Shown here piece by piece: positions 2,319-14,280 of a stretch of DNA of 33,070 nt; the first letter of the stretch is position 1, and each line of letters opens with the position of its first letter. The notes under the pieces are model-generated. The model was given only the letters and a program-made list of their open reading frames with translations. It made no database searches and had not been told where the DNA came from. The DNA lies in NCBI GenBank assembly GCA_043826085.1, contig JBDRQW010000046.1, positions 1 through 33,070 of the forward strand, given 5' to 3'. The position numbers and the translations under genes were made by a program. Source of the DNA: Candidatus Beckwithbacteria bacterium (lineage in GTDB: Bacteria > Patescibacteriota > Microgenomatia > UBA1400 > CG1-02-47-37).

Positions 2319-3070
2319 AAAAACTAATTATCTTAACCATTCTTTCTCTTTTAATTTTAATACCTTCTCCTCTAATTGCCAACGAGGCTTCAGAATCATC
2401 AAACTCAGAATCCCTCACCAATAAAATCAAAGAAAAGCTCCAAGAAACAGCTGAAGAAGGCTTAGACAACATCAGAAATGAAATTGTCAGCAAATCAAAA
2501 ACTCCAAAGAAAAAAGCTTTTATAGGTAACCTTAAATCAATTAATGAATCAAACCTAACCCTTGAATACAAGTCTCAGGTTTTCAAAGTCACTTTAGACG
2601 AAAATACCGATATTATTAAATCATCCGGTAGTAAAACTCTTACCATAGATGACCTTAGTATCGATGACTTTGTTATTGCCATGGGCTTTGTCTTGCCCGA
2701 TACCGACGATCTGATAGCTCACCGAATCCTCTTAATCTCTGCCCCAAAACCATCAATTTCCCGGCAATTACTAAGTGGAAAAATTAACGAAATCGACGGC
2801 AACAAAATTTCCATCGACTCGAAGTCTCTAGTCATCACCGCCAAAACCAATCTAAAAATCAAAGATGTGGAAGATCCCAAAGTAGAAGACCTGGAACTTG
2901 ATGATAATTTATTTGCCATTGTCACCTTAGACCAAAATGGAGATATCAACCTCATCAAACAAATTCTTATTTTACCCGGCAAAAACAATCCCGCTGCTCT
3001 TCAACCAACCAATGCCACCACCGCCACAGACTCTGCCACCGCCACCGATTCTGCCACCCTCGAAGAATAG
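2315..3070 (+). CDS. Hypothetical secreted protein with a C-terminal Ala/Thr-rich repeat
   Basis: 251 aa with a signal-peptide-like N-terminus (MKKLIILTILSLLILIPSPLIA). Translationally coupled to the upstream ORF. Confidence 0.6.
   Translation: MKKLIILTILSLLILIPSPLIANEASESSNSESLTNKIKEKLQETAEEGLDNIRNEIVSKSKTPKKKAFIGNLKSINESNLTLEYKSQVFKVTLDENTDIIKSSGSKTLTIDDLSIDDFVIAMGFVLPDTDDLIAHRILLISAPKPSISRQLLSGKINEIDGNKISIDSKSLVITAKTNLKIKDVEDPKVEDLELDDNLFAIVTLDQNGDINLIKQILILPGKNNPAALQPTNATTATDSATATDSATLEE
3020..3055 (+). repeat. 18-nt tandem duplication encoding TATDSA twice
   Basis: accgccacagactctgcc followed by accgccaccgattctgcc, inside the 3' end of the 2315-3070 CDS. Confidence 0.6.
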
Positions 3071-3080
3071 CTCCACCTGA

Positions 3081-3105
3081 ACCTGCAGGGTTTATCCTTG
3101 CAGGT
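3081..3105. repeat. ACCTGCAGGG-type hairpin, copy 1
   Basis: acctgcaggg-tttat-ccttgcaggt: a 10-bp stem with one G-U pair. It shares the arm sequence with the hairpin at 10049-10075 and lies 10 nt after the stop of the 2315-3070 CDS. Confidence 0.6.
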
Positions 3106-3134
3106 AAAAAACACAAATTTGTTATAATAAATAT

Positions 3135-3413
3135 ATGTCCAACAAACTTTATCAAGCAATCCTTACTTTAAAAACCGAAAAAGAAGTCACTGCCTTTCTT
3201 CGCGATCTTCTCACCTTAAAAGAAATCCATACTATCTCTAAACGCTTTCAAATGGCCATTTTGCTTTATCAAGGCCTTTCCTACGCCAAAATTGCCAAGC
3301 AACTTAAAGTTTCTACCACCACCGTTACCCGTACCGCCCACTGGCTCAAGCATGGTAAGGGTGGTTACCAAACAGTTCTCAAGCGCCTGAAAAAACACCC
3401 ACTCCCGGAGTGA
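3135..3413 (+). CDS. TrpR-related YerC/YecD-family DNA-binding protein
   Basis: 92 aa. LRDLLT..E......R......L..G.SY..I......S..TVTR pattern with C-terminal WLKHGKGGY, typical of YerC/YecD. Confidence 0.75.
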   Translation: MSNKLYQAILTLKTEKEVTAFLRDLLTLKEIHTISKRFQMAILLYQGLSYAKIAKQLKVSTTTVTRTAHWLKHGKGGYQTVLKRLKKHPLPE

Positions 3414-3436
3414 AAGAAGTTCACACTCCGGGAGTG
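3400..3436 (+). terminator. 13-bp perfect hairpin overlapping the stop codon of the YerC-like gene
   Basis: cactcccggagtg (3400-3412), 11-nt loop, cactccgggagtg (3424-3436). Each arm is itself a near-palindrome. The trailing tract ttcttcc is only a weak U-run. Confidence 0.5.
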
Positions 3437-3445
3437 TTCTTCCGC

Positions 3446-3474
3446 TTGACAAATATTTATTTTTACCTTAGAAT
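3446..3474 (+). promoter_or_regulatory. Sigma70-like promoter of the Phd/RelE pair
   Basis: TTGACA (3446-3451), 17-nt spacer, TAGAAT (3469-3474). Confidence 0.55.
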
Positions 3475-3478
3475 AACC

Positions 3479-3492
3479 TTAGATTAATCTAA
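3479..3492. promoter_or_regulatory. Candidate antitoxin operator
   Basis: Perfect 14-nt palindrome ttagattaatctaa between the -10 box and the ATG, flanked by three ACCTTAG repeats (about 3465, 3476 and 3499). Confidence 0.4.
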
Positions 3493-3511
3493 TAAATACC
3501 TTAGGAACAAT

Positions 3512-3802
3512 ATGTTAATACCCACTGACGAAAATGTTTGCAGTATCACTGATTTAAGAGAAAATACTCTTTCTCTTTTACAATCAGTTCAAAAAAAACA
3601 ATCCCCTACAATTATCATGTACAGAAATTCACCCAAAGCAATTCTGCTATCCATAAAAAAATATAACCAGTTAATGGAAATGGTAGAAGACTACTTAGAC
3701 GAAGACTTAGCTTTAGAACTTGAGCAAGAAGCCTTATCAGCAACCAAAAAAGACTATATCTCCCTTAAAGATATGGCTAAAAAACATAGCGTAAAAATCT
3801 AA
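3512..3802 (+). CDS. Type II antitoxin, Phd/YefM family
   Basis: 96 aa. SITDLRENTLSLLQSV...PTIIMYRNSPKAILLSIKKYNQL matches the Phd/YefM N-terminal pattern. Lies 2 nt upstream of the toxin ORF. Confidence 0.8.
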   Translation: MLIPTDENVCSITDLRENTLSLLQSVQKKQSPTIIMYRNSPKAILLSIKKYNQLMEMVEDYLDEDLALELEQEALSATKKDYISLKDMAKKHSVKI

Positions 3803-3804
3803 GC

Positions 3805-4071
3805 ATGTACCAAGTATTTGCCTTACATAAAGCTGATAAAAAAATTTATAAACTTCATTCCGATGACAAAAAGAAAGTCTTTAAGTTATTTACTAAGCTT
3901 AGGATTAATCCTCTCTCGGAAAATTTAAATATAAAAAAGATTAAAAATTCTAAAAAGACTTTCAGAATTAGAATTGGTAAGATTCGAATAACTTACACCA
4001 TAATTGCACAAAAAAAACAAGTGATTATTACAGACATTGGCTATCGTGGTAGCATGTATCGATTGTTTTAA
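3805..4071 (+). CDS. Type II toxin, RelE/ParE family
   Basis: 88 aa. FRIRIGKIRITYTI...VIITDIGYRGSMY is the typical RelE/ParE C-terminal signature. Confidence 0.8.
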   Translation: MYQVFALHKADKKIYKLHSDDKKKVFKLFTKLRINPLSENLNIKKIKNSKKTFRIRIGKIRITYTIIAQKKQVIITDIGYRGSMYRLF

Positions 4072-4091
4072 CACCCACTAATAACCCCTAC

Positions 4092-4119
4092 TTGACAAAT
4101 ATGTTTTTTCCTGTATATT
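4092..4119 (+). promoter_or_regulatory. Sigma70-like promoter heading the sORF/ammonia-lyase operon
   Basis: TTGACA (4092-4097), 16-nt spacer, TATATT (4114-4119). The -35 context CTTGACAAATAT is shared with the 3446 promoter. Confidence 0.55.
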
Positions 4120-4143
4120 AACGTATTAACATGCTAATATATC

Positions 4144-4166
4144 ATTTAAAGTTCCGAACTTTAAAT
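4144..4166. promoter_or_regulatory. 23-nt perfect palindrome (11+1+11) in the operon leader; candidate operator or RNA hairpin
   Basis: atttaaagttc-c-gaactttaaat, roughly +19 to +41 relative to the predicted transcription start. Confidence 0.45.
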
Positions 4167-4178
4167 ATTTATACAAAT

Positions 4179-4256
4179 ATGAACAAACAAAACAAAATAT
4201 TAAATTCTCATCACGGCCCACTTTTATGCGGGACGGGATATTTCATGTTGAAATAA
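4179..4256 (+). CDS. Candidate 25-codon sORF (leader peptide or precursor peptide)
   Basis: ATG at 4179 to TAA at 4254-4256 encodes MNKQNKILNSHHGPLLCGTGYFMLK. No clear Shine-Dalgarno. Sits between a promoter and a terminator. Too short for the supplied ORF track. Confidence 0.25.
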   Translation: MNKQNKILNSHHGPLLCGTGYFMLK

Positions 4257-4276
4257 ATTAATAAATTAAAAATATA

Positions 4277-4312
4277 ATCCCCCACCCCCCGCATTCTCTC
4301 GGGGGATTTTTT
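4277..4312 (+). terminator. Intrinsic terminator/attenuator between the sORF and the ammonia-lyase gene
   Basis: cccccg (4286-4291) pairs with cggggg (4300-4305). An alternative 7-bp stem is atccccc/gggggat. Followed by six T (4307-4312). The lyase RBS GGAG follows at 4315. Confidence 0.65.
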
Positions 4313-4326
4313 ATGGAGAAAAATAT

Positions 4327-5859
4327 ATGAATAAAAAAATCTTTAAACTGACAGGTAAGAATTTAAAACCTGAAAATGTAGTCGCACTTGGCAACAACCA
4401 GCTTAAGCTCGTTGTCCCCAAAGAAACTATTAAACGAGTTTCAGATAACTGGCAGGCAATTGCCCAAATGCTAAAGCGCGGTGACATCATGTACGGTTTA
4501 AATACTGGCATTGGTGGCTTTGGTAATGTAGTTATTTCAAAAAATAAAGCTGGAGAACTATCCACGAGAATGCTCAGAGCCCACGCTGCTGGATACGGAG
4601 ATATTGTTCAAGAAAATATTGCCAAAGCTTCATTATTCTTAAGATTAAATCTTTTTGCCATGGGTTACTCAGGTGTTAGACCTAAATTATTTAACACTTT
4701 TGTTACTATGATTAATCGCGGCGTTACTCCAATCTTTTATAATAAAGGCTCTGTTGGCACCTCGGGTGATCTTGCTCCTTTATCTCAAATGGGCTTAGTG
4801 GTTATTGGCGAAGGCCAAGCTTTTTATCAAGGCAAAATTATGTCCGGTAAAAAAGCAATGAAAAAAGCCGATATTCCTTTAGTTCCATTAACTTACCGAG
4901 AAGGGTTAGCTATTATGAATGGCACTCAATACATGAGCGCTATTGCTGCTTTTAATGTTTTTGAAGCTGAAAAATTAATTAAACAGGCAGAAATTATCTG
5001 CAGTATGTGTATTGATGTCTTAAACTGTGTTGAATCAGCCTACTCAAAACCATACAACCAAGCCAAAAAATATCAAGGCCAAAATGACTCAGCCTCTAAT
5101 ATAAGAAGCTTATTAAAAGGAAGCCAGATTTTAAAACAACCAAAGAAAAACATTCAAAATGCTTACTCACTCCGATCCGTGCCACAAGTTACTGGTAGTA
5201 TTCGTGAATGTTTAAAGTTTATTCGTCAAATGACAGAATCTGAGATCAATTCTGTGGCTGATAATCCTTTATTTTTTACCAAAGAAAAAGTTTGTCTAAC
5301 CGGAGCCAATTTTCACGGCGCACCTATTGGTTACAGTCAAGATTTACTTAAAGTCATCATCACTGATCTGGGTAATTTATTAGAACGCCAAACCAATAAT
5401 CTAATGGACCCTGCTTGCTCAGGTGATTTGCCAGCTTTTCTAGTAAAAAGTGCTGGTTTAGACTCTGGTTTAATGATTACCCAATATACTCAAGCCGCTC
5501 TCGTATCTGAAAATAAAGTTTTAGCTGGACCAAACAGTGTTGATTCAATTCCTGTTTCAGCCAATCAAGAAGATCACGTTTCTTTCGGCACTATTGCCGC
5601 CAGACAAGCTAGTGAAATTATTGAAAATACACAGGCCGTTTTAGCTATTCAACTTCTAGCTGTCTGTCAAGCTTATGAGTTTAGAAAACCGCTTAAACCC
5701 TCACCTGCTTTTCAGGCAGTTTATAAATTAGTTCGTTCTGTCAGTCCCAAAATCACCCAAGACCGAGCTTTTTATAAAGACATTGAAAAAGTAGTTCCTT
5801 TAATTAGAAATTGTCAAGTCTTACAAACTGCCGAAAAAATAGTCGGCAAACTTAAATAA
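4327..5859 (+). CDS. hutH: MIO-dependent aromatic amino-acid ammonia-lyase, histidine ammonia-lyase-like
   Basis: 510 aa. YGLNTGIGGFG, MIO loop GSVGTSGDLAPL (TSG at nt 4759-4767), LNGTQ, YSLRSVPQV, NFHGAP, SANQEDHVS. RAHAAG resembles the HAL LSHAAG motif (His retained) rather than the PAL/TAL FL/HL motifs. Length fits HAL. Confidence 0.8.
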   Translation: MNKKIFKLTGKNLKPENVVALGNNQLKLVVPKETIKRVSDNWQAIAQMLKRGDIMYGLNTGIGGFGNVVISKNKAGELSTRMLRAHAAGYGDIVQENIAKASLFLRLNLFAMGYSGVRPKLFNTFVTMINRGVTPIFYNKGSVGTSGDLAPLSQMGLVVIGEGQAFYQGKIMSGKKAMKKADIPLVPLTYREGLAIMNGTQYMSAIAAFNVFEAEKLIKQAEIICSMCIDVLNCVESAYSKPYNQAKKYQGQNDSASNIRSLLKGSQILKQPKKNIQNAYSLRSVPQVTGSIRECLKFIRQMTESEINSVADNPLFFTKEKVCLTGANFHGAPIGYSQDLLKVIITDLGNLLERQTNNLMDPACSGDLPAFLVKSAGLDSGLMITQYTQAALVSENKVLAGPNSVDSIPVSANQEDHVSFGTIAARQASEIIENTQAVLAIQLLAVCQAYEFRKPLKPSPAFQAVYKLVRSVSPKITQDRAFYKDIEKVVPLIRNCQVLQTAEKIVGKLK

Positions 5860-5865
5860 AAAAAT

Positions 5866-6507
5866 ATGATTAAAAAATATCCCAATCAAACCATTAAAAC
5901 CTTACTAACTCGTACTTGCTGTCGAGATTATACTAACCAACCTATTCCTGATCAAGATATTGATTATATTCTTAAAGCTGGCCAAGTAGCTCCTTCGGCT
6001 AAAAACCGTCAACCTTGGTTCTTTATAGTTATTAAAGATCAAGATTGTCGACAAAAAATCGCTAAATCCGCTTTTGTTGGCCGTCAACGCCAATTTGCCG
6101 GCTGGGATCAAGAAAAAGCTAAACAAATGATACAAGGAAATGCTTTTGATAATTCTAACGATGCCGTTATTGCTAAAGCTCCGGTCGCTATTCTTATTCT
6201 CAGAAACCTTAACCCCGATTATCAAGAAGCACTACCTGCTGAGCTTAATATTAAAGAGGAGCAAGGGGTCGCTAATACCACCTTTTCCATGATGTTAACA
6301 GCCCAAAGTCTAGGCCTAAACACAGTTTGGATCTGCTCCCCTCTTTATATTAAGAAAGAACTATCCCAAATACTGCCTCAATATGAAGTAGACTGGCAAA
6401 ATAATTGGCAACCACGAGCAATTATTCCCATCGGCTATCCAAAACAACCAGGCAATAAACCAACAAGAAAACCCTTACAAGAAATTAGTCTAGAAATATC
6501 GTCCTGA
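5866..6507 (+). CDS. Nitroreductase-family FMN oxidoreductase
   Basis: 213 aa. RTCCRDY....I........IL.AG..APSAKNRQPWFFIVI is the canonical nitroreductase N-terminal signature. Confidence 0.8.
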   Translation: MIKKYPNQTIKTLLTRTCCRDYTNQPIPDQDIDYILKAGQVAPSAKNRQPWFFIVIKDQDCRQKIAKSAFVGRQRQFAGWDQEKAKQMIQGNAFDNSNDAVIAKAPVAILILRNLNPDYQEALPAELNIKEEQGVANTTFSMMLTAQSLGLNTVWICSPLYIKKELSQILPQYEVDWQNNWQPRAIIPIGYPKQPGNKPTRKPLQEISLEISS

Positions 6508-6525
6508 TCCTAACCGGATCAGGAC
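6501..6525 (+). other. 10-bp perfect hairpin containing the nitroreductase stop codon
   Basis: gtcctgatcc-taacc-ggatcaggac. The TGA stop lies in the left arm. No U-run follows, so it is probably not a strong terminator. Confidence 0.5.
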
Positions 6526-6547
6526 TAAAAGAAAGTTGAAATAACTT

Positions 6548-7954
6548 ATGACGTCAAAAGAAATTAAAACTAAACCGCTTCAATTATTAACTTCTCAAAG
6601 AGAAATAAATAGATTTAATCTTAAGCCTGAACAGCCCTTATTTGCTTTAACTAGCGATGGAGGAATGGTTAAATCTCAAGATCCAAGAGTAAATTCTGTT
6701 GGAGAATTATTAACAAAGGTTGAAGATTTACTTCTTGAGCCAGAAGCAGTTTTTTGTGAAGAAATTTTATCTAGGATTTTAGATAAATCAACTAGTAGTG
6801 TTGCCAGACTAGAACCTCAGGCATTATTATCTCCACTTGAGTTTGAAGCTTACGTTTATAGATTTAAGAATGGTGGTGCTTATCTTAACCCAACACAGGA
6901 TTTTTATGCAGTTGTAGATGAAACAAAACTACCGGTGGCATATGGTTCAAGAAGCAGTCTATGCCCACCTATGGCAAATATTTCAATATTCAGTCAAAAA
7001 CTGATGAATATTCCAGACGAACCAGTCTGTACTGGAGGGGTTCAACCTTGTTTACGAAATGAGGTAATTTATGAACAGGAAAAAATCCGGTTCCCATGGT
7101 TTACCCAAACAGATATTGAACTAATAGCAATAACTTCACTTGACCAACAAGAGAATCAAGAAATTCTGTTAGATACCTATTCTTGCTATCAAATGATCAA
7201 AGCACTCGAATTAGCAGGTATTCCTAATAAAAGTATCGAAATTAGAATTAATAATTATATGCAAATTCTAAATAATGTTCTTGGAGATCAAGTCCCATGG
7301 TTAGAAAAAGAAATTTTTGGTTATCAATCACTTAATAATTTATCAGCCTTAAAAGCTGCTAGAAAAACAGAAACTGATGAGTATCGGATAGAACAAAAAC
7401 AATCCCTAAATAAATTATCTAATTTCTGTAAAAAGTTTGATGTTCCTGAAGAAGCTCAAGCATTTTTCTCAAATATAATCACTAAGGGTGGATATGATTT
7501 TTCTTGCCTATCTGATAATCCTGGAGAATCACCCGAAATAATAACAAATTTTAATTACATTGATGCAATCCAGGCTTACTTACGATTAATTACTACGTCA
7601 ACCTTGCTTAGAAATTTTTTCCCTGGAAGGCAAATATGTAAAATCGATCCACTTTCATATAGGGGAGGTTTTCCTGGTTATGACAAAACTACTATGCAAA
7701 TAGACGTTATTCTCCCAAACGATCAAGTAATGATAGAGGTTGGCGGTGGCGGAGCTTATCCGAATTCCCTGCAAACAGCGGCTGAAGTACTGGGTGATAG
7801 TTATTTAAATCAACCTCAATCCTATGCAGTTGGATTTGCTTTAGGTAATGCTCGTGTATACAGTGCAATGGAAAAGTTTTTACCATCACCACAAGTTAAT
7901 TCGACAGTTTCTGTTTTATCTTGGAATGAATTTCTAGAAGTATGCAACCAATAA
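6548..7954 (+). CDS. Degenerate class II aaRS-like protein (HisRS/HisZ-like catalytic core, no anticodon-binding domain)
   Basis: 468 aa, with the hisS product in this window as comparator:
- Motif-2-like: CLRNEVIYEQEKIRFPWFTQTDIELIA (aa 168-194) versus VWRAEKPQKGRFREFTQCDADTIG.
- DPLSYRGGFPGYD versus FIARGLAYYTG.
- Motif-3-like: VGGGGAYPN...YAVGFALGNARVY versus GCGRYDN...ATGGSFGIERIV.
The protein ends about 25 aa after motif 3. Confidence 0.6.
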   Translation: MTSKEIKTKPLQLLTSQREINRFNLKPEQPLFALTSDGGMVKSQDPRVNSVGELLTKVEDLLLEPEAVFCEEILSRILDKSTSSVARLEPQALLSPLEFEAYVYRFKNGGAYLNPTQDFYAVVDETKLPVAYGSRSSLCPPMANISIFSQKLMNIPDEPVCTGGVQPCLRNEVIYEQEKIRFPWFTQTDIELIAITSLDQQENQEILLDTYSCYQMIKALELAGIPNKSIEIRINNYMQILNNVLGDQVPWLEKEIFGYQSLNNLSALKAARKTETDEYRIEQKQSLNKLSNFCKKFDVPEEAQAFFSNIITKGGYDFSCLSDNPGESPEIITNFNYIDAIQAYLRLITTSTLLRNFFPGRQICKIDPLSYRGGFPGYDKTTMQIDVILPNDQVMIEVGGGGAYPNSLQTAAEVLGDSYLNQPQSYAVGFALGNARVYSAMEKFLPSPQVNSTVSVLSWNEFLEVCNQ

Positions 7955-9024
7955 GAAAAGAGATCATTTCAATAGTTTCTAAACTTATATCTTTTAAAAC
8001 TATTGATAAAAATTTACAAGAAATAAATAACTGCATTGATTATATTCAAGATTATTTTTCAAATTCAAAATTGATAGTAAAAAAATTTACTTCTGGGAAT
8101 ATTCCTTCATTAGTTATTAGTAATCAAGATACTAAATCTTTTGATATTTTGTTTAATGGGCATATAGACGTAGTGCCTGGAACAAAAAAACAATTTACTG
8201 CAAAAGTAACTAATTTAAAAATATTTGGTCGAGGAGCAATTGATATGAAAGGCTCAATTGCTAGTTTAATGGTGCTGTTTAAAAATTTACCGAAGATCAA
8301 CAAAAAGGTTGGATTAATGATCGTTAGCGACGAAGAAATTAATGGCACTAACGGAACAAATTATTTAGTTAATAAAAAAGTTTTAAAATCTAAATTTACT
8401 ATTATTGCTGAAGAAAGCGATTTTAATATTGTAACTAAACAGAAGGGGCAAATAACAATAAAATTAAAAGCATTGGGTAAGAGTGGACATGGATCTCAAC
8501 CGTGGGCTGGTGAAAATGCAATTGAAAAACTTTATAAATATTATTTAAAAATTAGAAATAAATTTCCACAAAATCAAACAGATATTTGGAATTCAAGTAG
8601 TATCAATCTAGGAGTTATTGCGGGAGGTGAAGCAGTTAATGTTATTCCAAATTATGCAGAAGCAAAAATTGATATTAGATATCCGACTATCAAAAGATTA
8701 GAAACTCTTTTACATGATTTAAAAAAAATTACTCAAAGCGATGAAACATTTATGATTAATTCCAAAACTAATCCGATGAACTCTGGAAGATCTTTACCTT
8801 ATATTAATAAACTAAAACAGATAATAAAGGAGGAGATTGGACGTAAATCTCAAATCAAATGGACAAATTATTGTAGTGATGGAAGGTATTTTTCTGACAA
8901 GAAACTGCCTGTAATAGAATTTGGTCCAACTGGAGAAAATTACCACACTATAAAAGAGTATGTTGAAATAAACAGCCTAGTTCAATACTATAATATTATT
9001 AATAAGCTGATAGAATCAATCTAG
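7942..9024 (+). CDS. M20-family metallopeptidase/deacylase (ArgE/DapE/PepV-like)
   Basis: 360 aa. NGHIDVVPG, GRGAIDMKG, VSDEEINGTNG and GKSGHGSQPW are M20 metal-binding and catalytic motifs. The start overlaps the upstream ORF by 13 nt. Confidence 0.8.
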   Translation: MQPIRKEIISIVSKLISFKTIDKNLQEINNCIDYIQDYFSNSKLIVKKFTSGNIPSLVISNQDTKSFDILFNGHIDVVPGTKKQFTAKVTNLKIFGRGAIDMKGSIASLMVLFKNLPKINKKVGLMIVSDEEINGTNGTNYLVNKKVLKSKFTIIAEESDFNIVTKQKGQITIKLKALGKSGHGSQPWAGENAIEKLYKYYLKIRNKFPQNQTDIWNSSSINLGVIAGGEAVNVIPNYAEAKIDIRYPTIKRLETLLHDLKKITQSDETFMINSKTNPMNSGRSLPYINKLKQIIKEEIGRKSQIKWTNYCSDGRYFSDKKLPVIEFGPTGENYHTIKEYVEINSLVQYYNIINKLIESI

Positions 9025-9027
9025 TTT

Positions 9028-9984
9028 ATGAGCTCTAAAATAAATCCATTCACCAACGTCATTCAAAACTGCATGGCTGTCAAACCAACCGATTCAGTTC
9101 TAATCGTCACTGATCCTACAAGAAATCTCCTTGCATGTGAGTTCTTAAAAGCGGCTAAAGAAATCACCAAAAAAGCTGAGCTTATTTCTTTTGACAGCAT
9201 GATCGAGAACGCCCAGGAGCCGCCAAAAGAAATCGGCGATCTTTTACACACATCTGATGTGTGTTTGTTAATAACCACCTATTCCCTCTCCCACACCCAA
9301 GCCAGAAAAAACGCTTGCAAGGCTGGTGCCCGAATTGCTTCCATGCCAGGCATCACCAAAGACATGATATTAAGAACCCTATCTGAGGATTACTCAGAGA
9401 TTGCCAAAACTAGCCAAAAATTAAAAAAAGTTTTAGAAACAGGTAAAAAAGTTACTATTACCTCTCCAGGTGGCACTAACCTCACTCTTACCATCACTAA
9501 TCGGCCAGTTATTGCCGATACCGGCTTTTTCACTAAACCGGGCGACTTTGGTAACTTACCAGCCGGAGAAACTTTCTTAGCTCCAATTGAAGAAAAAACT
9601 AACGGCACAATTATTTTTGATGGTTCCTTTGCCGGTATCACTCTAGATAAACCCATTAAAATAGAAGTTAAAAACGGCCTTGCTATAAAAATCTCTGGCG
9701 GTAAAGCCGCCAAAACCCTCAAGAAACTCATTGACAGGGTCAGACCCTGTCATAAAGCTAAAATCATTGGTGAACTTGGTCTTGGCACCAATAAAACCTG
9801 TAAGCTATGTCCACAAATTTTAGAAGCCGAAAAAGTCTATGGTACTGCCCATCTAGCTCTTGGTAATAACTTTGGTTTTGGTGGCAGTAACCAAGTCTCC
9901 TTCCACTCCGACGGCATTATCCTCAACCCAACTGTTACAGTTGACAAAAAAATCATCATCAAAAATAACAAAATCCTAATCTAA
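9028..9984 (+). CDS. M29-family aminopeptidase (AmpS/PepS-like, short form)
   Basis: 318 aa. GNLPAGETFLAP, GELGLGTN, GTAHLALGN and SFHSDGI match M29 conserved blocks. Lies 3 nt after the M20 stop. Confidence 0.75.
   Translation: MSSKINPFTNVIQNCMAVKPTDSVLIVTDPTRNLLACEFLKAAKEITKKAELISFDSMIENAQEPPKEIGDLLHTSDVCLLITTYSLSHTQARKNACKAGARIASMPGITKDMILRTLSEDYSEIAKTSQKLKKVLETGKKVTITSPGGTNLTLTITNRPVIADTGFFTKPGDFGNLPAGETFLAPIEEKTNGTIIFDGSFAGITLDKPIKIEVKNGLAIKISGGKAAKTLKKLIDRVRPCHKAKIIGELGLGTNKTCKLCPQILEAEKVYGTAHLALGNNFGFGGSNQVSFHSDGIILNPTVTVDKKIIIKNNKILI
9244..9266. repeat. Copy 1 of the 23-nt element TTACACACATCTGATGTGTGTTT (core 9+1+9 palindrome)
   Basis: Identical 23-mer to the copies at 18194-18216 and 19823-19845. 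In frame inside the M29 CDS, encoding LHTSDVCL. Confidence 0.85.
9732..9752. repeat. 21-nt perfect palindrome inside the M29 CDS
   Basis: tgacagggtc-a-gaccctgtca, encoding DRVRPCH. Confidence 0.7.
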
Positions 9985-10007
9985 CCTACAAGGATCATCC
10001 CTGTAGG
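9985..10007. other. Imperfect hairpin immediately after the M29 stop
   Basis: cctacaagg-atcat-ccctgtagg: 8 of 9 stem positions pair. Confidence 0.45.
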
Positions 10008-10048
10008 CTGATTAATTAACATCCTAACCCAAGAAGACTCTTTTCACA

Positions 10049-10075
10049 CACCTGCAGGGTTGAACCCTGCAGGTG
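10049..10075. repeat. ACCTGCAGGG-type hairpin, copy 2
   Basis: cacctgcaggg-ttgaa-ccctgcaggtg: an 11-bp perfect stem between the M29 gene and hisS. Confidence 0.7.
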
Positions 10076-10111
10076 AATAAATAAGAAATAAACTATGGTA
10101 AACTAATAAAT

Positions 10112-11455
10112 ATGACTAAACTAAAAGCTCAAAAACTAGCCGGATTTAGAGACTTCTTTGCCGAAGATATTAAAATCCGGGAATTTGTAATTAACGCTTT
10201 CAAAACAGTATTTGAAAAATATGGTTACGAACCCTTGCAAACCCCGGCCCTAGAGTACACTGATATTTTCGCTGGTGAAACCGGAGAAGAAGCTGAAAAA
10301 CTTTTTTATAATTTTAAAGATAACGGCGGCAGGGACATCATGCTTAAATATGAAGTTATGATCTCCATGTGTCGAGCCGTAGCTGAAAACATCAATAAGA
10401 TCACCTTCCCCTACAAACGCTACCAAATCCAAAATGTCTGGCGGGCTGAAAAACCACAAAAAGGGCGCTTTAGAGAATTTACTCAATGTGATGCTGATAC
10501 CATCGGCACAGCCTCTGTTATCACTGATGCTGAGTTTATCCAAATGGGTATTGAAGTCATGCAAAAACTTGGCTTTAAAAACTTCATCGCCAATATCTCT
10601 AATCGAAAATTCTTAAACGGTCTAGTTAAATTTGCCGGCGCTAAAGATAACGACTTTATCCCAATTTGCCTGTCAATTGATAAACTTCCAAAAATAGGCC
10701 GCGATAAAGTTAAACAAGAACTAGTTGCTAAAAGAAAAATATCTCCGGATATCGCCGATAAAGTTCTAGATGTTGTCACTACTACCGGTAAGTCAGATCA
10801 ACTAATTAAGAAATTCAAAACTCAAATGAAAAACATTCCGGAAGCTATCAAAGGCTTAGAAGAACTGGAAACTATTTTTAATTACTTAAAAACATCTAAG
10901 GTTAATTCTAAATTTTATCAATTTTCCCCTTTTATTGCTCGAGGTTTAGCTTACTATACCGGTCCAGTCTGGGAATTTGAAATTCTTGAAGGAAATATTG
11001 GTTCAGTCGCCGGCTGTGGTCGCTACGATAACACCATTGGTAACTTAATCGGCTCAGGCAAACAAGTCCCAGCTACAGGAGGCTCGTTTGGCATCGAAAG
11101 AATCGTAGAGGTAATCAAAGACAGGAAAATGATTAAAATTGATATCACGCCGGTTAAGGCTCTAGTGACCTGGTTTGCTGATAAAACTTTTGACCAAAGT
11201 TTAGTTGTTGCAAATAAATTAAGAAACAATAACATCTCCACTATGTTATATCCGGAGATGGATAAACTTAATAAACAACTCAAATACGCCGATCAGAAAC
11301 AAATTCCTTTTGTAATTATCATCGGCCCGGATGAAGTCAAGAAAAATTTAGTCACCCTCAAAAACATGAATAAAAAATCTCAAACCACCCTCCCCCTTGA
11401 AAAAGTAATCGCTAAACTTCGGCCAAAGGCCGATCAGCCTCTGGCTGAAAAATAA
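10112..11455 (+). CDS. hisS: Histidine--tRNA ligase
   Basis: 447 aa. Motif 2 WRAEKPQKGRFREFTQCD, ARGLAYYTG, motif 3 GCGRYDN...GGSFGIERI, and a C-terminal anticodon-binding domain (IPFVIIIGPDE). Confidence 0.92.
   Translation: MTKLKAQKLAGFRDFFAEDIKIREFVINAFKTVFEKYGYEPLQTPALEYTDIFAGETGEEAEKLFYNFKDNGGRDIMLKYEVMISMCRAVAENINKITFPYKRYQIQNVWRAEKPQKGRFREFTQCDADTIGTASVITDAEFIQMGIEVMQKLGFKNFIANISNRKFLNGLVKFAGAKDNDFIPICLSIDKLPKIGRDKVKQELVAKRKISPDIADKVLDVVTTTGKSDQLIKKFKTQMKNIPEAIKGLEELETIFNYLKTSKVNSKFYQFSPFIARGLAYYTGPVWEFEILEGNIGSVAGCGRYDNTIGNLIGSGKQVPATGGSFGIERIVEVIKDRKMIKIDITPVKALVTWFADKTFDQSLVVANKLRNNNISTMLYPEMDKLNKQLKYADQKQIPFVIIIGPDEVKKNLVTLKNMNKKSQTTLPLEKVIAKLRPKADQPLAEK
11419..11448 (+). other. 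Twin GC-rich mini-hairpins forming the last codons of hisS
   Basis: tcggcc-aaa-ggccga and tcagcc-tct-ggctga, encoding the C-terminal tail RPKADQPLAE. Confidence 0.5.
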
Positions 11456-11462
11456 TACCCCA

Positions 11463-12365
11463 ATGCCTAAACGTCTTAAAGCCTATCTAGCCCTCATCGT
11501 CGTCGCCATTGTTTGGGGTGCCGCCCTGCCCATTGTCAAACCGGCCCTTGAATTTATCACTCCCGCGCAATTTTTATTTTTCCGCTACCTTTTAGCCGCC
11601 CCATTAGCTTTACCAATATTTATTTACTACTTCATCAAGTTGAAACCAAAACGTAATCTCATCATCAAAATTATATTATTAGAAGCCTTCACTTACTTTA
11701 CTTTAATTATTCTTTATCAAGGCCTCAAGCTGACTTCAGCCATCGAAGCATCTTTAATCGGCGCCACCGGCCCGATTTTTACTGTTTTAGGCGGTATTCT
11801 CTTTCTCAAAGAAAAAGAAGAAAAACGAGAATGGCTAGGCTTAATAATTAGTTTTTTTGGCACTATCATACTGATAGTTGAACCCCTGTTAACTGGCGCA
11901 AATTCTTCAATTGGTCTTTCCTTAAACGGCAACTTAATGATTATTGGATACAACCTAACTTGGACCGCCTATCTTTTAATTGCCAAAAAACTTTATCAAA
12001 AACTTCCCAAACTATTTATCTCAAGTTTTAGCTACCAAATCGGTTTACTATGCTTTTTTCTCATCAACCACTTTAACCACAATTCAATGTCCTTATCTTT
12101 ACTCTCTCACCCAAGCGTAGCCATAGCCGCCATTTACATGGCCGTCTTTGGCTCAATTATCGGCTTTACTCTTTACATCTACGGTCAAAACCTCATCGAG
12201 GCCTCAGAAGCCTGCCTCTTTACTTACTTACAAGGAGTTGTTGCCATTCCTGTTGCAATTATTTTGCTCAACGAGTCCATCACTTGGCCCGCCTTACTAG
12301 CTATACTGATCATCTCCATCGGTATCTTTTTAGCCGAATATCGGCCTAGAAAAATAACTACTTAA
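11463..12365 (+). CDS. EamA/DMT-superfamily transporter
   Basis: 300 aa with about 10 hydrophobic segments in two halves and the N-terminal WGAALPIVK-type EamA pattern. Confidence 0.75.
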   Translation: MPKRLKAYLALIVVAIVWGAALPIVKPALEFITPAQFLFFRYLLAAPLALPIFIYYFIKLKPKRNLIIKIILLEAFTYFTLIILYQGLKLTSAIEASLIGATGPIFTVLGGILFLKEKEEKREWLGLIISFFGTIILIVEPLLTGANSSIGLSLNGNLMIIGYNLTWTAYLLIAKKLYQKLPKLFISSFSYQIGLLCFFLINHFNHNSMSLSLLSHPSVAIAAIYMAVFGSIIGFTLYIYGQNLIEASEACLFTYLQGVVAIPVAIILLNESITWPALLAILIISIGIFLAEYRPRKITT

Positions 12366-12384
12366 CTGATATAATCCTCTGGTT

Positions 12385-12708
12385 ATGAAAAAAAAGATTC
12401 ATCCTAAATACTATTCCAATTGCAAAGTCACTTGTGCTTGTGGCAATGTCTTTACCACCGGCTCTACTCTCGAGGAAATTAAGGTCGACATTTGCTCTGC
12501 CTGCCATCCCTTTTTTACCGGTAAAATGAAATTTATTGACACCATGGGCCGAGTCGAAAAATTCCAAAAAAGTCAAAAAAAAGCAGAAAAAAAGAAATAC
12601 ACCAAAAAAATAGACCGAAAAAGATTAGAAGAAAAATTAGAAAAAGCTAAGCCTAGAACCTTAAAAGAAATGATTGAACAACAAGCAAAGAAAAAGAAAA
12701 AACAATGA
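12385..12708 (+). CDS. rpmE: Ribosomal protein L31 with a long Lys-rich C-terminal extension
   Basis: [10 protein letters not shown]...CACGN...[11 protein letters not shown]...D..GRVEKF is the L31 signature. About 40 extra residues follow, rich in K and E. Confidence 0.9.
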
Positions 12709-13595
12709 ACGACTACCTCAAAGAGGAGGTCAAGCGCTTAGAAGAAAAAATTAAAAAAACTTCAACCCTCCTCAAAGACCCTCAACTAAAGGACTTAGCT
12801 CAAGAAGAAGTTACTTCTCTCGAATCCCAACTCCAATCTTTAAATTCATTACCACTCCGGAGTGGTAATGAAAAGAAAAAAACAAAAAAACTACAAATAC
12901 GCCAAGGAAATATTATTATCGAAGTTCGATCCGCCGCTGGCGGTGAAGAAGCTAAAATTTGGGCCGACGACCTACTTGAAATGTACACTCGTTTTGCAGA
13001 AATTCAAGGCTTAGAAATCATCCCATTAAGCTCCGGAACTATTAAAATCAAGGGAAAGAAAGCCCACTCTCTTTACCAATTTGAATCTGGGGTTCATCGA
13101 GTTCAAAGAGTTCCAACCACTGAATCCCAAGGTAGAATTCACACCTCTACCGCCACTGTTACCATTCTTCCGGAAGTTAAAGAAACTGAAATTATTATTA
13201 ACCCAAAAGATATTACTATTGAGTTTTATCGATCATCAGGATCAGGTGGCCAAAATGTAAATAAAGTTTCTACGGCAGTCAGACTAAAACACGCTCCCTC
13301 CGGAATCGTCATTGAGTCTCAAACTCAACGCACTCAAGAACAAAACCGAAAAATTGCTTACGATTTATTACGCTCTAAACTCTACACTATAAAAAAAGAC
13401 AAAGAAATAACCAAAGTCGACTCAACCAGAAAACAAGCGGTTGGTCGTGGCATGAGAGCCGAAAAAATCAGAACCTACAACTTTCCCCAAAACCGAGTCA
13501 CTGATCACCGTCTCCAAAAATCATTCAAAGACTTAAAAAACATCATGGAAGGCAACCTCTTACAAATCGTAACCAATCTTCAACAATTATCCTAA
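12705..13595 (+). CDS. prfA: Peptide chain release factor 1 (compact form)
   Basis: 296 aa. [20 protein letters not shown] (PxT-type RF1 tripeptide region) and [10 protein letters not shown] (GGQ). ATGA overlap with rpmE. Confidence 0.9.
12847..12870. repeat. 24-nt perfect palindrome inside the prfA N-terminal region
   Basis: cattaccactcc|ggagtggtaatg, encoding SLPLRSGN. The core CACTCCGGAGTG resembles the arms of the 3400-3436 hairpin. Confidence 0.75.
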
Positions 13596-13596
13596 A

Positions 13597-14280
13597 CTAA
13601 TCCAAGCCAAGAGTTTTAAATACGGCGTTTTTATTAGCTTTATATATAATATCCCCGTCAAAAATATCACCAGGTATATCTATTAATTTAGTTTCAGGCA
13701 ACTCATGTCCATATTGGTCCAGTATTTGCCTTGCAGTATTGTTATACGTTTCAATTTGTATAAATATCCTTTGTTTTATTTCTTCAAGGTGATCTTTGTC
13801 AGTTTCAAAAATTAACTTTATTCGTGATAAAACCGCCCTAGGCTTAATCAGAGTAACACATATTAAATCTTCCATTTGAATAAACCTTAACAATTTGCTT
13901 CTCCATTCCTGAAAAGATTTTTCATCTTTAAACCTACCTGCTTTCATATACATCTCCGCAACTACCATTGCCTGAAAGGGGCCATCAGTCAACAGCAATA
14001 CTCCGGCATGAGCTTTCTTTCTCTCAACTAATTTACACACAGTATTTGTATATAAAGGCAATTCATTTTCACTGTCGTTTAATGGATCAGGCAACAAAGA
14101 CATACCGCATAAACCTCTATGTTTCTTGCCAGTTTCTCGTGTCAATAAATTATCAAGCGTACCGTTCACTAATAAAGTATATTTTCCCCGAAACGGTGTC
14201 CCGCAGAATTCAATTCTTGTTGTAACATTTAAAATGTTGGTATTTTCTTTTTTGCGAAATAAATTGTATTTTTCATTCAT
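13597..14280 (-). CDS. Hypothetical protein (possible degenerate P-loop fold)
   Basis: 227 aa. Only weak cues: GTPFRGKYT (Walker-A-like, with Y in place of S/T) and LLLTDG. Visibly AT-rich. The stop lies 1 nt from the prfA stop, in convergent orientation. Confidence 0.5.
   Translation of the reverse strand: MNEKYNLFRKKENTNILNVTTRIEFCGTPFRGKYTLLVNGTLDNLLTRETGKKHRGLCGMSLLPDPLNDSENELPLYTNTVCKLVERKKAHAGVLLLTDGPFQAMVVAEMYMKAGRFKDEKSFQEWRSKLLRFIQMEDLICVTLIKPRAVLSRIKLIFETDKDHLEEIKQRIFIQIETYNNTARQILDQYGHELPETKLIDIPGDIFDGDIIYKANKNAVFKTLGLD

Follow-up and report, generated by a model that had tools for sequence, protein, structure and literature searches.

The histidine operon leader of Escherichia coli and Salmonella, hisL (Rfam RF00514), has a short open reading frame (ORF) carrying His codons in a row, hairpins 1:2, 2:3 and 3:4 that exclude one another, and an intrinsic terminator before the first structural gene. 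In E. coli pheST, an attenuator with the pheM leader adjusts an aminoacyl-tRNA synthetase operon to how far its cognate tRNA is charged. Here we describe a leader with the hisL arrangement at positions 4092-4326 of contig JBDRQW010000046.1, a stretch of 33,070 nucleotides (the window) from a Candidatus Beckwithbacteria genome, where it lies upstream of a gene for a HutH-type histidine ammonia-lyase (HAL) and, further downstream, of hisS. As in hisL, read-through would be expected when His-tRNA is scarce. We are fairly confident that this leader is a ribosome-mediated histidine leader-peptide transcription attenuator paired with a HisR repressor site, the two forming a two-layer switch for histidine limitation, and it very probably switches on the lyase/hisS operon when charged tRNA-His is scarce.

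Outside Proteobacteria, His leader peptides have been predicted in bacilli, 5' of an hisS paralog and of hisZ (Naville & Gautheret 2010, PMC2965389). A later study added new his attenuators from the B. cereus group, Peptostreptococcaceae and Erysipelotrichales (Ashniev et al. 2022, PMC9413887). Like the window leader, these are His-codon leader peptides that also stand before genes of the histidyl-tRNA synthetase (HisRS) family, but they belong to another phylum, are unrelated in sequence and have 3-5 His codons. According to that later study, YerC is a predicted histidine repressor, HisR, whose operators are 20-bp palindromes with the consensus cacTTTAnnnnnnTAAAgtg; the attenuators of Firmicutes are reported there in lineages without HisR, whereas the window has HisR and an attenuator on one promoter, and the phyla named in its abstract and regulon section do not include Patescibacteria (PMC9413887). 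The hut operon of B. subtilis also has a terminator between promoter and hutH and is controlled by antitermination. Its HutP protein is a histidine-activated RNA-binding inducer, whereas the window genome lacks hutP and the logic predicted for its leader is the opposite.

The source genome (G000; 1.05 Mb, 36.5% GC, about 97% complete, Patescibacteria-type; the window is its contig C46) holds a leader that shares no sequence or structure homology with hisL. It has 2 His codons rather than 7 and no Shine-Dalgarno (SD) sequence on its small ORF. A predicted HisR operator accompanies it, and the operon under its control is a lyase/hisS one of salvage type, in a genome that lacks his biosynthesis. 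From pheST/pheM it differs in the amino acid and in lacking homology, and its hisS is distal, behind variable cargo. Rfam at gathering thresholds gave no matches in the whole window, nor in the leader of genome G029. A permissive scan of 4050-4350 gave only sub-threshold scores for Arrc14 (36.8 against 99), Phe_leader (16.6 against 55) and His_leader RF00514 (15.6 bits against a gathering threshold of 49, E = 2.9), and no T-box match even at E <= 10. HutP (PF09021) was absent from G000, the B. subtilis control being positive. The mechanism is the classical one of hisL, trpL and pheM, and the element lies outside Rfam His_leader. A literature search for leader-peptide attenuation in Patescibacteria, also called the candidate phyla radiation (CPR), found no description. 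These bacteria are nearly uncultured, and gene regulation in them is almost wholly undescribed. The leader is a real attenuator of ordinary mechanism, in an unstudied lineage, attached to an unexpected target.

Competing RNA structures in the leader

The leader and its first gene comprise the following features.

4092-4119, + strand: sigma-70-type promoter TTGACA-16-TATATT, with -35 box 4092-4097 and -10 box 4114-4119
4114-4141, + strand: predicted HisR operator, two overlapping palindromic sites 8 bp apart, from motif conservation
4117-4130 and 4125-4138: predicted cores of the two HisR sites, ATTA-N6-TAAC and ATTA-N6-TAAT
4144-4166, no strand assigned: copy of a dispersed palindromic repeat, core GTT[C/A]CGAAC, in the 5' untranslated region (UTR)
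4179-4256, + strand: leader peptide small ORF (sORF) of 25 codons, MNKQNKILNSHHGPLLCGTGYFMLK, from ATG 4179 to TAA 4254-4256
4214-4221, + strand: segment 1, weak partner of segment 2, directly 3' of the His codons (RNAfold)
4226-4239, + strand: segment 2, 5' strand of the antiterminator within the sORF, codons 16-21 (duplex energy, snapshot fold)
4277-4294, + strand: segment 3, two C-runs, common to the antiterminator and the terminator left arm
4286-4312, + strand: intrinsic terminator, with stem 4286-4291/4300-4305, loop 4292-4299, A4306 and T6 4307-4312
4315-4318, + strand: ribosome-binding site (RBS) GGAG of the lyase gene, with its ATG at 4327
4327-5859, + strand: HutH-type histidine ammonia-lyase, first regulated gene (PF00221 1e-161; TIGR01225)

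The promoter matches the consensus at 11/12 positions and is among the two best sites in 3000-14000; relatives keep TTGACA and a TATATT/TATAAT-like -10 box at the same position. As in trp- and his-type attenuators, a short ORF with consecutive codons for the amino acid to be sensed follows, here His11 (CAT, 4209-4211) and His12 (CAC, 4212-4214). Between the sORF and the first structural gene stands the intrinsic terminator, which is present in all terminator-type homologues too. Its six all-GC pairs (CCCCCG 4286-4291 with CGGGGG 4300-4305) close an 8-nt loop, with an energy of -12.1 kcal/mol with flanks and -10.6 for the hairpin alone. A first, sequence-only reading of this DNA had located the promoter, the palindrome, the 25-codon sORF with its His pair, the GC stem with six T and the lyase RBS, all of them correctly; it had omitted the HisR operator over the transcription start.

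The part of the sORF that can pair with the terminator left arm sits 13-18 nt 3' of the His codons, and segment 2 begins 14 nt past the first base of His codon 12. With CAC 4212 in the A site, a ribosome would be expected to shield the mRNA as far as about 4224-4227, and segment 2 starts at 4226. Segment 1 (4214-4221) pairs with 4228-4235, with interruptions, in both the minimum free energy (MFE) and the centroid folds (RNAfold). The pairing that the sequence-only reading drew by hand, 4228-4237 with 4285-4292, is real; it computes to -10.6 kcal/mol and can be extended to AUGCGGG:CCCGCAU plus GGGAU:AUCCC, the extended form being the MFE fold (-15.5) as long as segment 4 has not been transcribed. 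The best 2:3 duplex in the window reaches -17.1 kcal/mol against -10.6 for the terminator, covers all 6 bases of the terminator left arm (4286-4291) and is equalled by 1% of dinucleotide shuffles. The two C-runs of segment 3 allow segment 2 to shift onto the first of them. When the RNA has been made only to 4296 and the ribosome is stalled, the MFE fold is the antiterminator (-15.5), which occupies 4288-4294. Antiterminator and terminator are thus mutually exclusive, and only a stall at the regulatory codons would expose the former, with the reservation that the equilibrium fold of the full leader retains the terminator.

From the observed anatomy, conserved frame, His codons, geometry, competing pairings and operator motif, we infer that the sORF is translated, that the leader responds to His-tRNA and that HisR binds at the promoter. 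On the DNA layer, HisR would presumably close the promoter at 4092-4119 through the tandem operator at 4114-4141 when free histidine is plentiful. On the RNA layer, a ribosome short of His-tRNA(His) would stall at 4209-4214 and cover segment 1 (4214-4221), leaving segment 2 (4226-4239) free to pair with segment 3 (4277-4294) as the latter is transcribed. With the terminator left arm so occupied, RNA polymerase would continue into the lyase operon. With His-tRNA(His) plentiful, the ribosome would translate through segment 2 and reach the stop codon at 4254, the hairpin 4286-4305 plus U6 would form and transcription would stop at about 4312.

Conservation of the leader across genomes

A search with the lyase found 25 loci with 71-84% identical orthologues, in metagenome-assembled genomes of Roizman-, Gottesman-, Woese-, Chisholm-, Dojka- and Paceibacteria. 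About 22/24 of the other lyase loci have a His-His(-His) sORF at the equivalent place; where the 5' sequence is long enough, nearly all loci have such an ORF with two or three His codons in a row, followed by a G-rich segment and then by either a CCCCGCC...GGCGGGG-T(n) terminator or a hairpin that sequesters the lyase SD. An equivalent leader also stands directly 5' of hisS in genomes G016 and G030, and 5' of M20-peptidase genes in other genomes. We built a covariance model (R1) from 13 terminator-type leaders and searched it in 286 genomes of the order, obtaining matches (E <= 0.01) in 148. Among the best 22 new matches, the next gene was recognised in 15, as hisS (5), a HAL-like lyase (40% identical; 4) or an M20 hydrolase (6).

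The reading frame is conserved. In 22/22 matches outside model building, the His frame is an ATG-started ORF that ends 15-66 nt past the His codons, whereas the other two frames contain such an ORF in 3/22 and 0/22. Because the start codon lies outside the model, this is independent evidence of translation-frame conservation, a question that the sequence-only reading had left standing. In the same-genus genome G001, a net 3-nt indel leaves the sORF frame intact, and the promoter, operator, sORF, segments 2-4 and RBS are nearly identical to those of the window, with a different first downstream gene. A start further upstream in the same frame, ATG 4131, would give a nearly leaderless ORF of 41 codons; it was considered and rejected: its counterpart in G001 reads ATG ATA ATA TAA, out of frame, so ATG 4179 is the conserved start.

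Homologous sORFs encode MNQQNKSLNSHHVSSTCGQADIFMLK in G001, MTKSNKLSISHHAPLLCGLNRL in G003 and MNTKPVSHHDYHLITQAVTGFVML in G016. Conservation of the peptide is limited to the His pair and the RNA-constrained codons overlapping segment 2; the remainder varies freely, and the core is not kept even within the genus. The His codons of family leaders number 2 to 4 (HH, HHH, HHHH) and vary between CAT and CAC. One strong model match, L079 (G109:C1:59469-59562), has CTT CTT (Leu-Leu) in place of the His codons and encodes MSTQQHFIKSYLLTSHKRGGV; it could be a copy in decay, or a leader whose target has shifted to another amino acid.

The competing pairings recur with the frame. In 15 hand-checked leaders we took the RNA that a ribosome stalled on the last His codon would leave free and paired it against the terminator left arm. 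The resulting 2:3 duplexes lie between -13.7 and -21.4 kcal/mol, whereas the terminator hairpins lie between -6 and -17. The duplex spans the entire left arm in 14/15 (14/17 bases in L011), and <=1% of dinucleotide shuffles match it in 12/15. Across all 35 unique model matches the medians are -17.0 for 2:3 and -11.6 for the terminator, with 2:3 the stronger in 31/35. Segments 2, 3 and 4 change together in G016 (CCAGCC/GGCTGG with GGTGACTGG), in L034 (ATCATTATCCCGC with GCGGGATGAT) and in G030 (CCCCCT with AGGGGG). In alignment A2, 86.8% of cells pair, and a slide by one column lowers this to about 57%. The covariation score is 0.234 against 0.139, and 0/500 shuffles attain the former value; segment 4 is shifted by one column between rows of A2, and the MAFFT alignment A1 is only roughly in register. 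One proposal of the sequence-only reading was a translation-coupled attenuator keyed on His-His. Dozens of independent loci bear it out, with the same sORF frame, His codons, spacing to segment 2 and 2/3/4 competition.

A second leader version stands upstream of the lyase in L016, L019, L020, L022, L025, L026 and L028-L031. Its His-His sORF ends in a hairpin, and in place of a terminator there is a long conserved hairpin (CCATTCGCAG...CTGCGAA) in which the lyase SD is buried. Masked folding of this SD-sequestering variant (L019, L020, L022, L025, L026, L028, L030) left the sequestering hairpin in the MFE fold when a ribosome was placed on the His codons.

A predicted HisR operator at the leader promoter

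Upstream of the leader lie the probable repressor gene and an inserted gene pair.

3135-3413, + strand: hisR, YerC/YecD-type TrpR-family repressor gene (profile matches)
3512-4071: Phd/YefM-ParE/RelE toxin-antitoxin pair, between hisR and its operator/leader

The product of 3135-3413 matches TIGR02531 (yecD_yerC) with 73 bits (cut-off 42.2) and PF01371 at 2e-22, and scores only 26 bits against TrpR TIGR01321, under the cut-off of 67; it is the HisR orthologue of the window. In most related loci the hisR orthologue is immediately 5' of the leader. The toxin-antitoxin pair has a strong promoter of its own (3446-3474); the same insertion is found in G001 and is absent from G003, G007 and G009.

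Just 3' of the -10 box, the motif ATTAACAYGNTAATAT (ATTA-N6-TAAT) is kept in 20+ loci, often as two sites 8 bp apart, so that a conserved palindrome of about 20 bp stands in the target promoter, as in members of a HisR regulon. Positions 4124-4139 are the sole 1-mismatch match, and the single best, to the palindrome TATTAACATGTTAATA in the whole 1.05-Mb genome. The window operator has the TTA-N6-TAA architecture of the published HisR consensus cacTTTAnnnnnnTAAAgtg (PMC9413887). The likeness to that published system extends to the position of the gene, a YerC/YecD-type TrpR-family gene adjoining its target, and to the palindrome overlapping the promoter. The published half-site is cacTTTA (PMC9413887), whereas the lineage-specific half-site here is atATTAaca, and the target in the window is neither his biosynthesis nor a known histidine transporter. 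These data suggest that a HisR operator overlaps the transcription start at the leader promoter. One promoter would thus carry two independent histidine-responsive devices, both of kinds that activate supply genes when histidine is short.

Weighing the attenuator against alternatives

Several observations weigh against a histidine-sensing attenuator. The sORF has no SD sequence 5' of ATG 4179 and is not leaderless, as a 5' UTR of about 50 nt with an inserted hairpin precedes it. It has only two His codons, which the sequence-only reading counted as a weakness relative to classical his leaders; because HH, HHH or HHHH is the norm in this leader family, the low count is not one. The first regulated gene is of a histidine-degrading enzyme type, the opposite of what a starvation switch would lead one to expect. 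The 1:2 pairing is weak in the window copy, although the hairpin is much stronger in the relatives L018 (CCCCGCC/GGCGGGG) and L021. At equilibrium the terminator persists in the folded window leader even when segment 2 is free (MFE -19.0, with a pair probability of about 0.92 for the terminator). Of the folding comparison that the sequence-only reading had proposed, the duplex energies and the fold to 4296 therefore favour the antiterminator and the full-leader equilibrium does not; since equilibrium restores the terminator once segment 4 exists, switching would have to be kinetic (co-transcriptional). The GCGGG/CCCGC core is nearly invariant, with true compensatory (double) changes confined to the helix ends, and alignment A2 was fitted to the modelled structure. 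Metatranscriptome contigs are too sparse to reveal termination or read-through: in run X7, short contigs fell on the lyase, the paralog, the M29-like gene, hisS, the EamA transporter gene and hisR, and none on 3634-4584.

An improbable alternative is a TnaC-like nascent-peptide sensor of free histidine with inverted logic, in which high histidine would arrest the ribosome and block termination and the lyase would be substrate-induced. Such a sensor would suit a first gene that encodes a bona fide HutH-type lyase, catabolic hut operons being normally histidine-induced, and would account for the recurrence of some peptide positions beyond HH (HHxxHT.VAG, F-M-L-K). However, these residues map to RNA segment 2 (GCG GGG = Ala-Gly) and the peptide is otherwise free. 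The leader has an intrinsic terminator and a 2:3 competitor positioned for a stall at the His codons, not at the stop codon. An equivalent leader drives hisS directly, and a genome with no hutU has no catabolic pathway to induce. The promoter also bears the predicted HisR operator, and HisR regulons consist of histidine-repressed supply genes (PMC9413887).

We regard it as just as improbable that the sORF is untranslated and that CAUCAU and the hairpins make up an attenuator of the riboswitch, HutP or T-box kind, which would bind a protein or ligand and sense histidine or tRNA-His directly. The missing SD, the conservation of CAUCAU at the RNA level and the protein-dependent antiterminator that controls hutH in B. 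subtilis all speak for an RNA of this kind. Against it, an ATG-started frame with a nearby stop is kept in every one of the 22 matches, indels keep the frame and the His codons vary both in spelling, CAT or CAC, and in number, from 2 to 4. No Rfam family, T-box included, was found at threshold, and the genome has no hutP.

A chance assembly, with no regulatory coupling between an ordinary promoter, a short ORF that arose at random and a hairpin that is mere decoration, is very improbable. It is true that AT-rich genomes are rich in short ORFs and that generic scans are not significant by themselves: the whole-leader fold has a z-score of -1.37, and terminator-like sites number 13 against 8.6 +/- 2.5 in shuffles. 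The significance of the leader rests on conservation across genomes, not on generic single-sequence scans, and the full arrangement is kept across many families of the order and beyond.

The other proposal of the sequence-only reading, a precursor like those of ribosomally synthesized and post-translationally modified peptides (RiPPs), or another functional micropeptide, with a leaky terminator before modifying enzymes (lyase, nitroreductase, ligase-like paralog, peptidases), can be set aside with hardly any reservation: the peptide does have a Cys and a Gly-rich core, and a nitroreductase/dehydrogenase, an aminoacyl-tRNA synthetase-like ligase and peptidases are types known from peptide-modification clusters, but the core varies even within the genus, the His codons and RNA pairing being what is conserved, the lyase orthologues with the leader are mostly without nitroreductase, paralog and peptidase genes, and the leader also precedes a lone hisS, M20 peptidases and unrelated cargo (GNAT+M15, DAO+M29, nucleoside hydrolases), so that neither a conserved core or leader peptide nor dedicated modifying enzymes are found.

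The lyase and the variable cargo behind the leader

The attenuator would control, first of all, a lyase that scores 545 bits against TIGR01225 hutH (cut-off 539) and whose best PDB relatives are histidine ammonia-lyases. Its 4-methylideneimidazole-5-one (MIO) loop is GTSGDL, with the MIO triad Thr-Ser-Gly, and the alignment shows the SHAAG-type His, the QEDHVS Glu and the NGT, Q..Y..R and NFHG motifs, which we take to be the histidine-specific HAL active-site residues. Across Patescibacteria classes the lyase is 71-84% identical, the adjacent DnaB 47-64% and hisS 37-42%.

The genome lacks hutU (urocanase) and hisD, and nothing in it matches HisA/F above the Pfam cut-off. From the hisD and HisA/F results, the source organism is probably a histidine auxotroph. 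A starvation switch fits this physiology, because of the probable auxotrophy and because the block also includes hisS.

In the window's own family, the cargo between the conserved hisR-operator-leader and hisS differs from genome to genome. The slot begins with the very conserved HutH-type lyase in the window genome and 20+ others, and elsewhere holds the following.

G001 (L096): GNAT and M15
G003 (L097): FAD DAO-type oxidase and M29
G007 (L098): unknown protein, DUF917/S-Me-THD-like protein and M29
G009 (L099): HAD/PRTase and nucleoside hydrolase
G011 (L100): kinase-like protein and nucleoside hydrolase

A tentative explanation, which we consider possible and rather doubtful, is that the HisR operator and the His attenuator mark a histidine-starvation regulon in histidine-auxotrophic Patescibacteria, that the slot is a swap-in histidine-salvage cassette and that the lyase makes histidine (urocanate + NH3 -> L-histidine) or acts on a histidine derivative, in either case supplying HisRS. 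The lyase is cast here as a supplier of histidine rather than a degrader because urocanase and a his pathway are both missing from the genome.

Taken by itself, the attenuator is a finding of moderate weight, its mechanism being classical. A conserved His switch in about half of the sampled genomes of the order would mean coupled transcription-translation attenuation in reduced cells, and the paradox is that a "catabolic" lyase stands under starvation control. The genes behind the leader (the HutH-type lyase, the HisRS-like paralog, the M20/M29 hydrolases and the variable cargo) are candidates for histidine scavenging in auxotrophic symbionts, and would be expected to be expressed when histidine charging fails.

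A dispersed palindromic repeat in the 5' untranslated region

Positions 4144-4166 form a perfect inverted repeat, ATTTAAAGTTC-C-GAACTTTAAAT (11+1+11), whose RNA is predicted to fold into an 11-bp hairpin. The pattern TTAAAGTTCCGAACTTTAA has 17 genome matches at <=3 mismatches, against 1 for a control pattern, and 4 of the copies are identical. A looser genome scan found 43 members of the GTT[C/A]CGAAC-core family, mostly intergenic; copies include C95:4793, C95:5022 and C98:5122, and the complementary flanks vary (CATGAAGGTTACGAACCTTCATG and ACTCAAGGTTACGAACCTTGAGT, for example). The palindrome thus has the properties of dispersed repeats resembling repetitive extragenic palindromic (REP) elements. 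Precisely this palindrome is missing from the G003 leader, and the G001 leader bears a different hairpin there.

The sequence-only reading had made the palindrome part of a structured leader, a view that its dispersal and its absence from the leaders of relatives do not sustain. To judge from this distribution, it is a passenger REP-like repeat that landed in the 5' UTR, outside the switch. The family could be REP-like elements or sites for a global DNA-binding protein. The palindrome was also considered as a HisR site and rejected, its TTTA...TAAA halves being 13 nt apart, not 6, and the sequence having proved to be a dispersed repeat.

Neighbouring genes

The genes downstream of the lyase probably belong to the same operon.

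5866-12365, + strand: rest of the probable operon, with nitroreductase, diverged HisRS-like paralog, M20 and M29-like hydrolases, hisS and EamA transporter
10112-11455, + strand: hisS (genuine)

The EamA transporter gene is followed in the window by L31 and then RF1. The block DnaB-MBL-Ig-hypothetical protein-YerC-[leader]-lyase-...-hisS-EamA-L31-RF1 is syntenic in >15 genomes from several Patescibacteria classes. Co-transcription of hisS from the leader promoter can only be inferred, because the 127-nt gap 5' of hisS holds two hairpins and no T-run.

The window hisS (10112-11455) is 82% identical to the hisS of G003, which belongs to a different genus, and 72-73% identical to those of G014 and G017, and only 44-46% identical to the hisS of both same-genus genomes. 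This pattern suggests replacement, or transfer together with the operon. A DNA contig from run X2 links position 3105 to 9984, omitting 6878 bases, the entire block from hisR through the toxin-antitoxin pair, leader and lyase to the M29-like gene. The overlap at this link is only 20 nt, and the junction lies at hairpins (10049-10075) with the common arm ACCTGCAGGG; it may be an assembly-graph link through a repeat, or a strain without the block.

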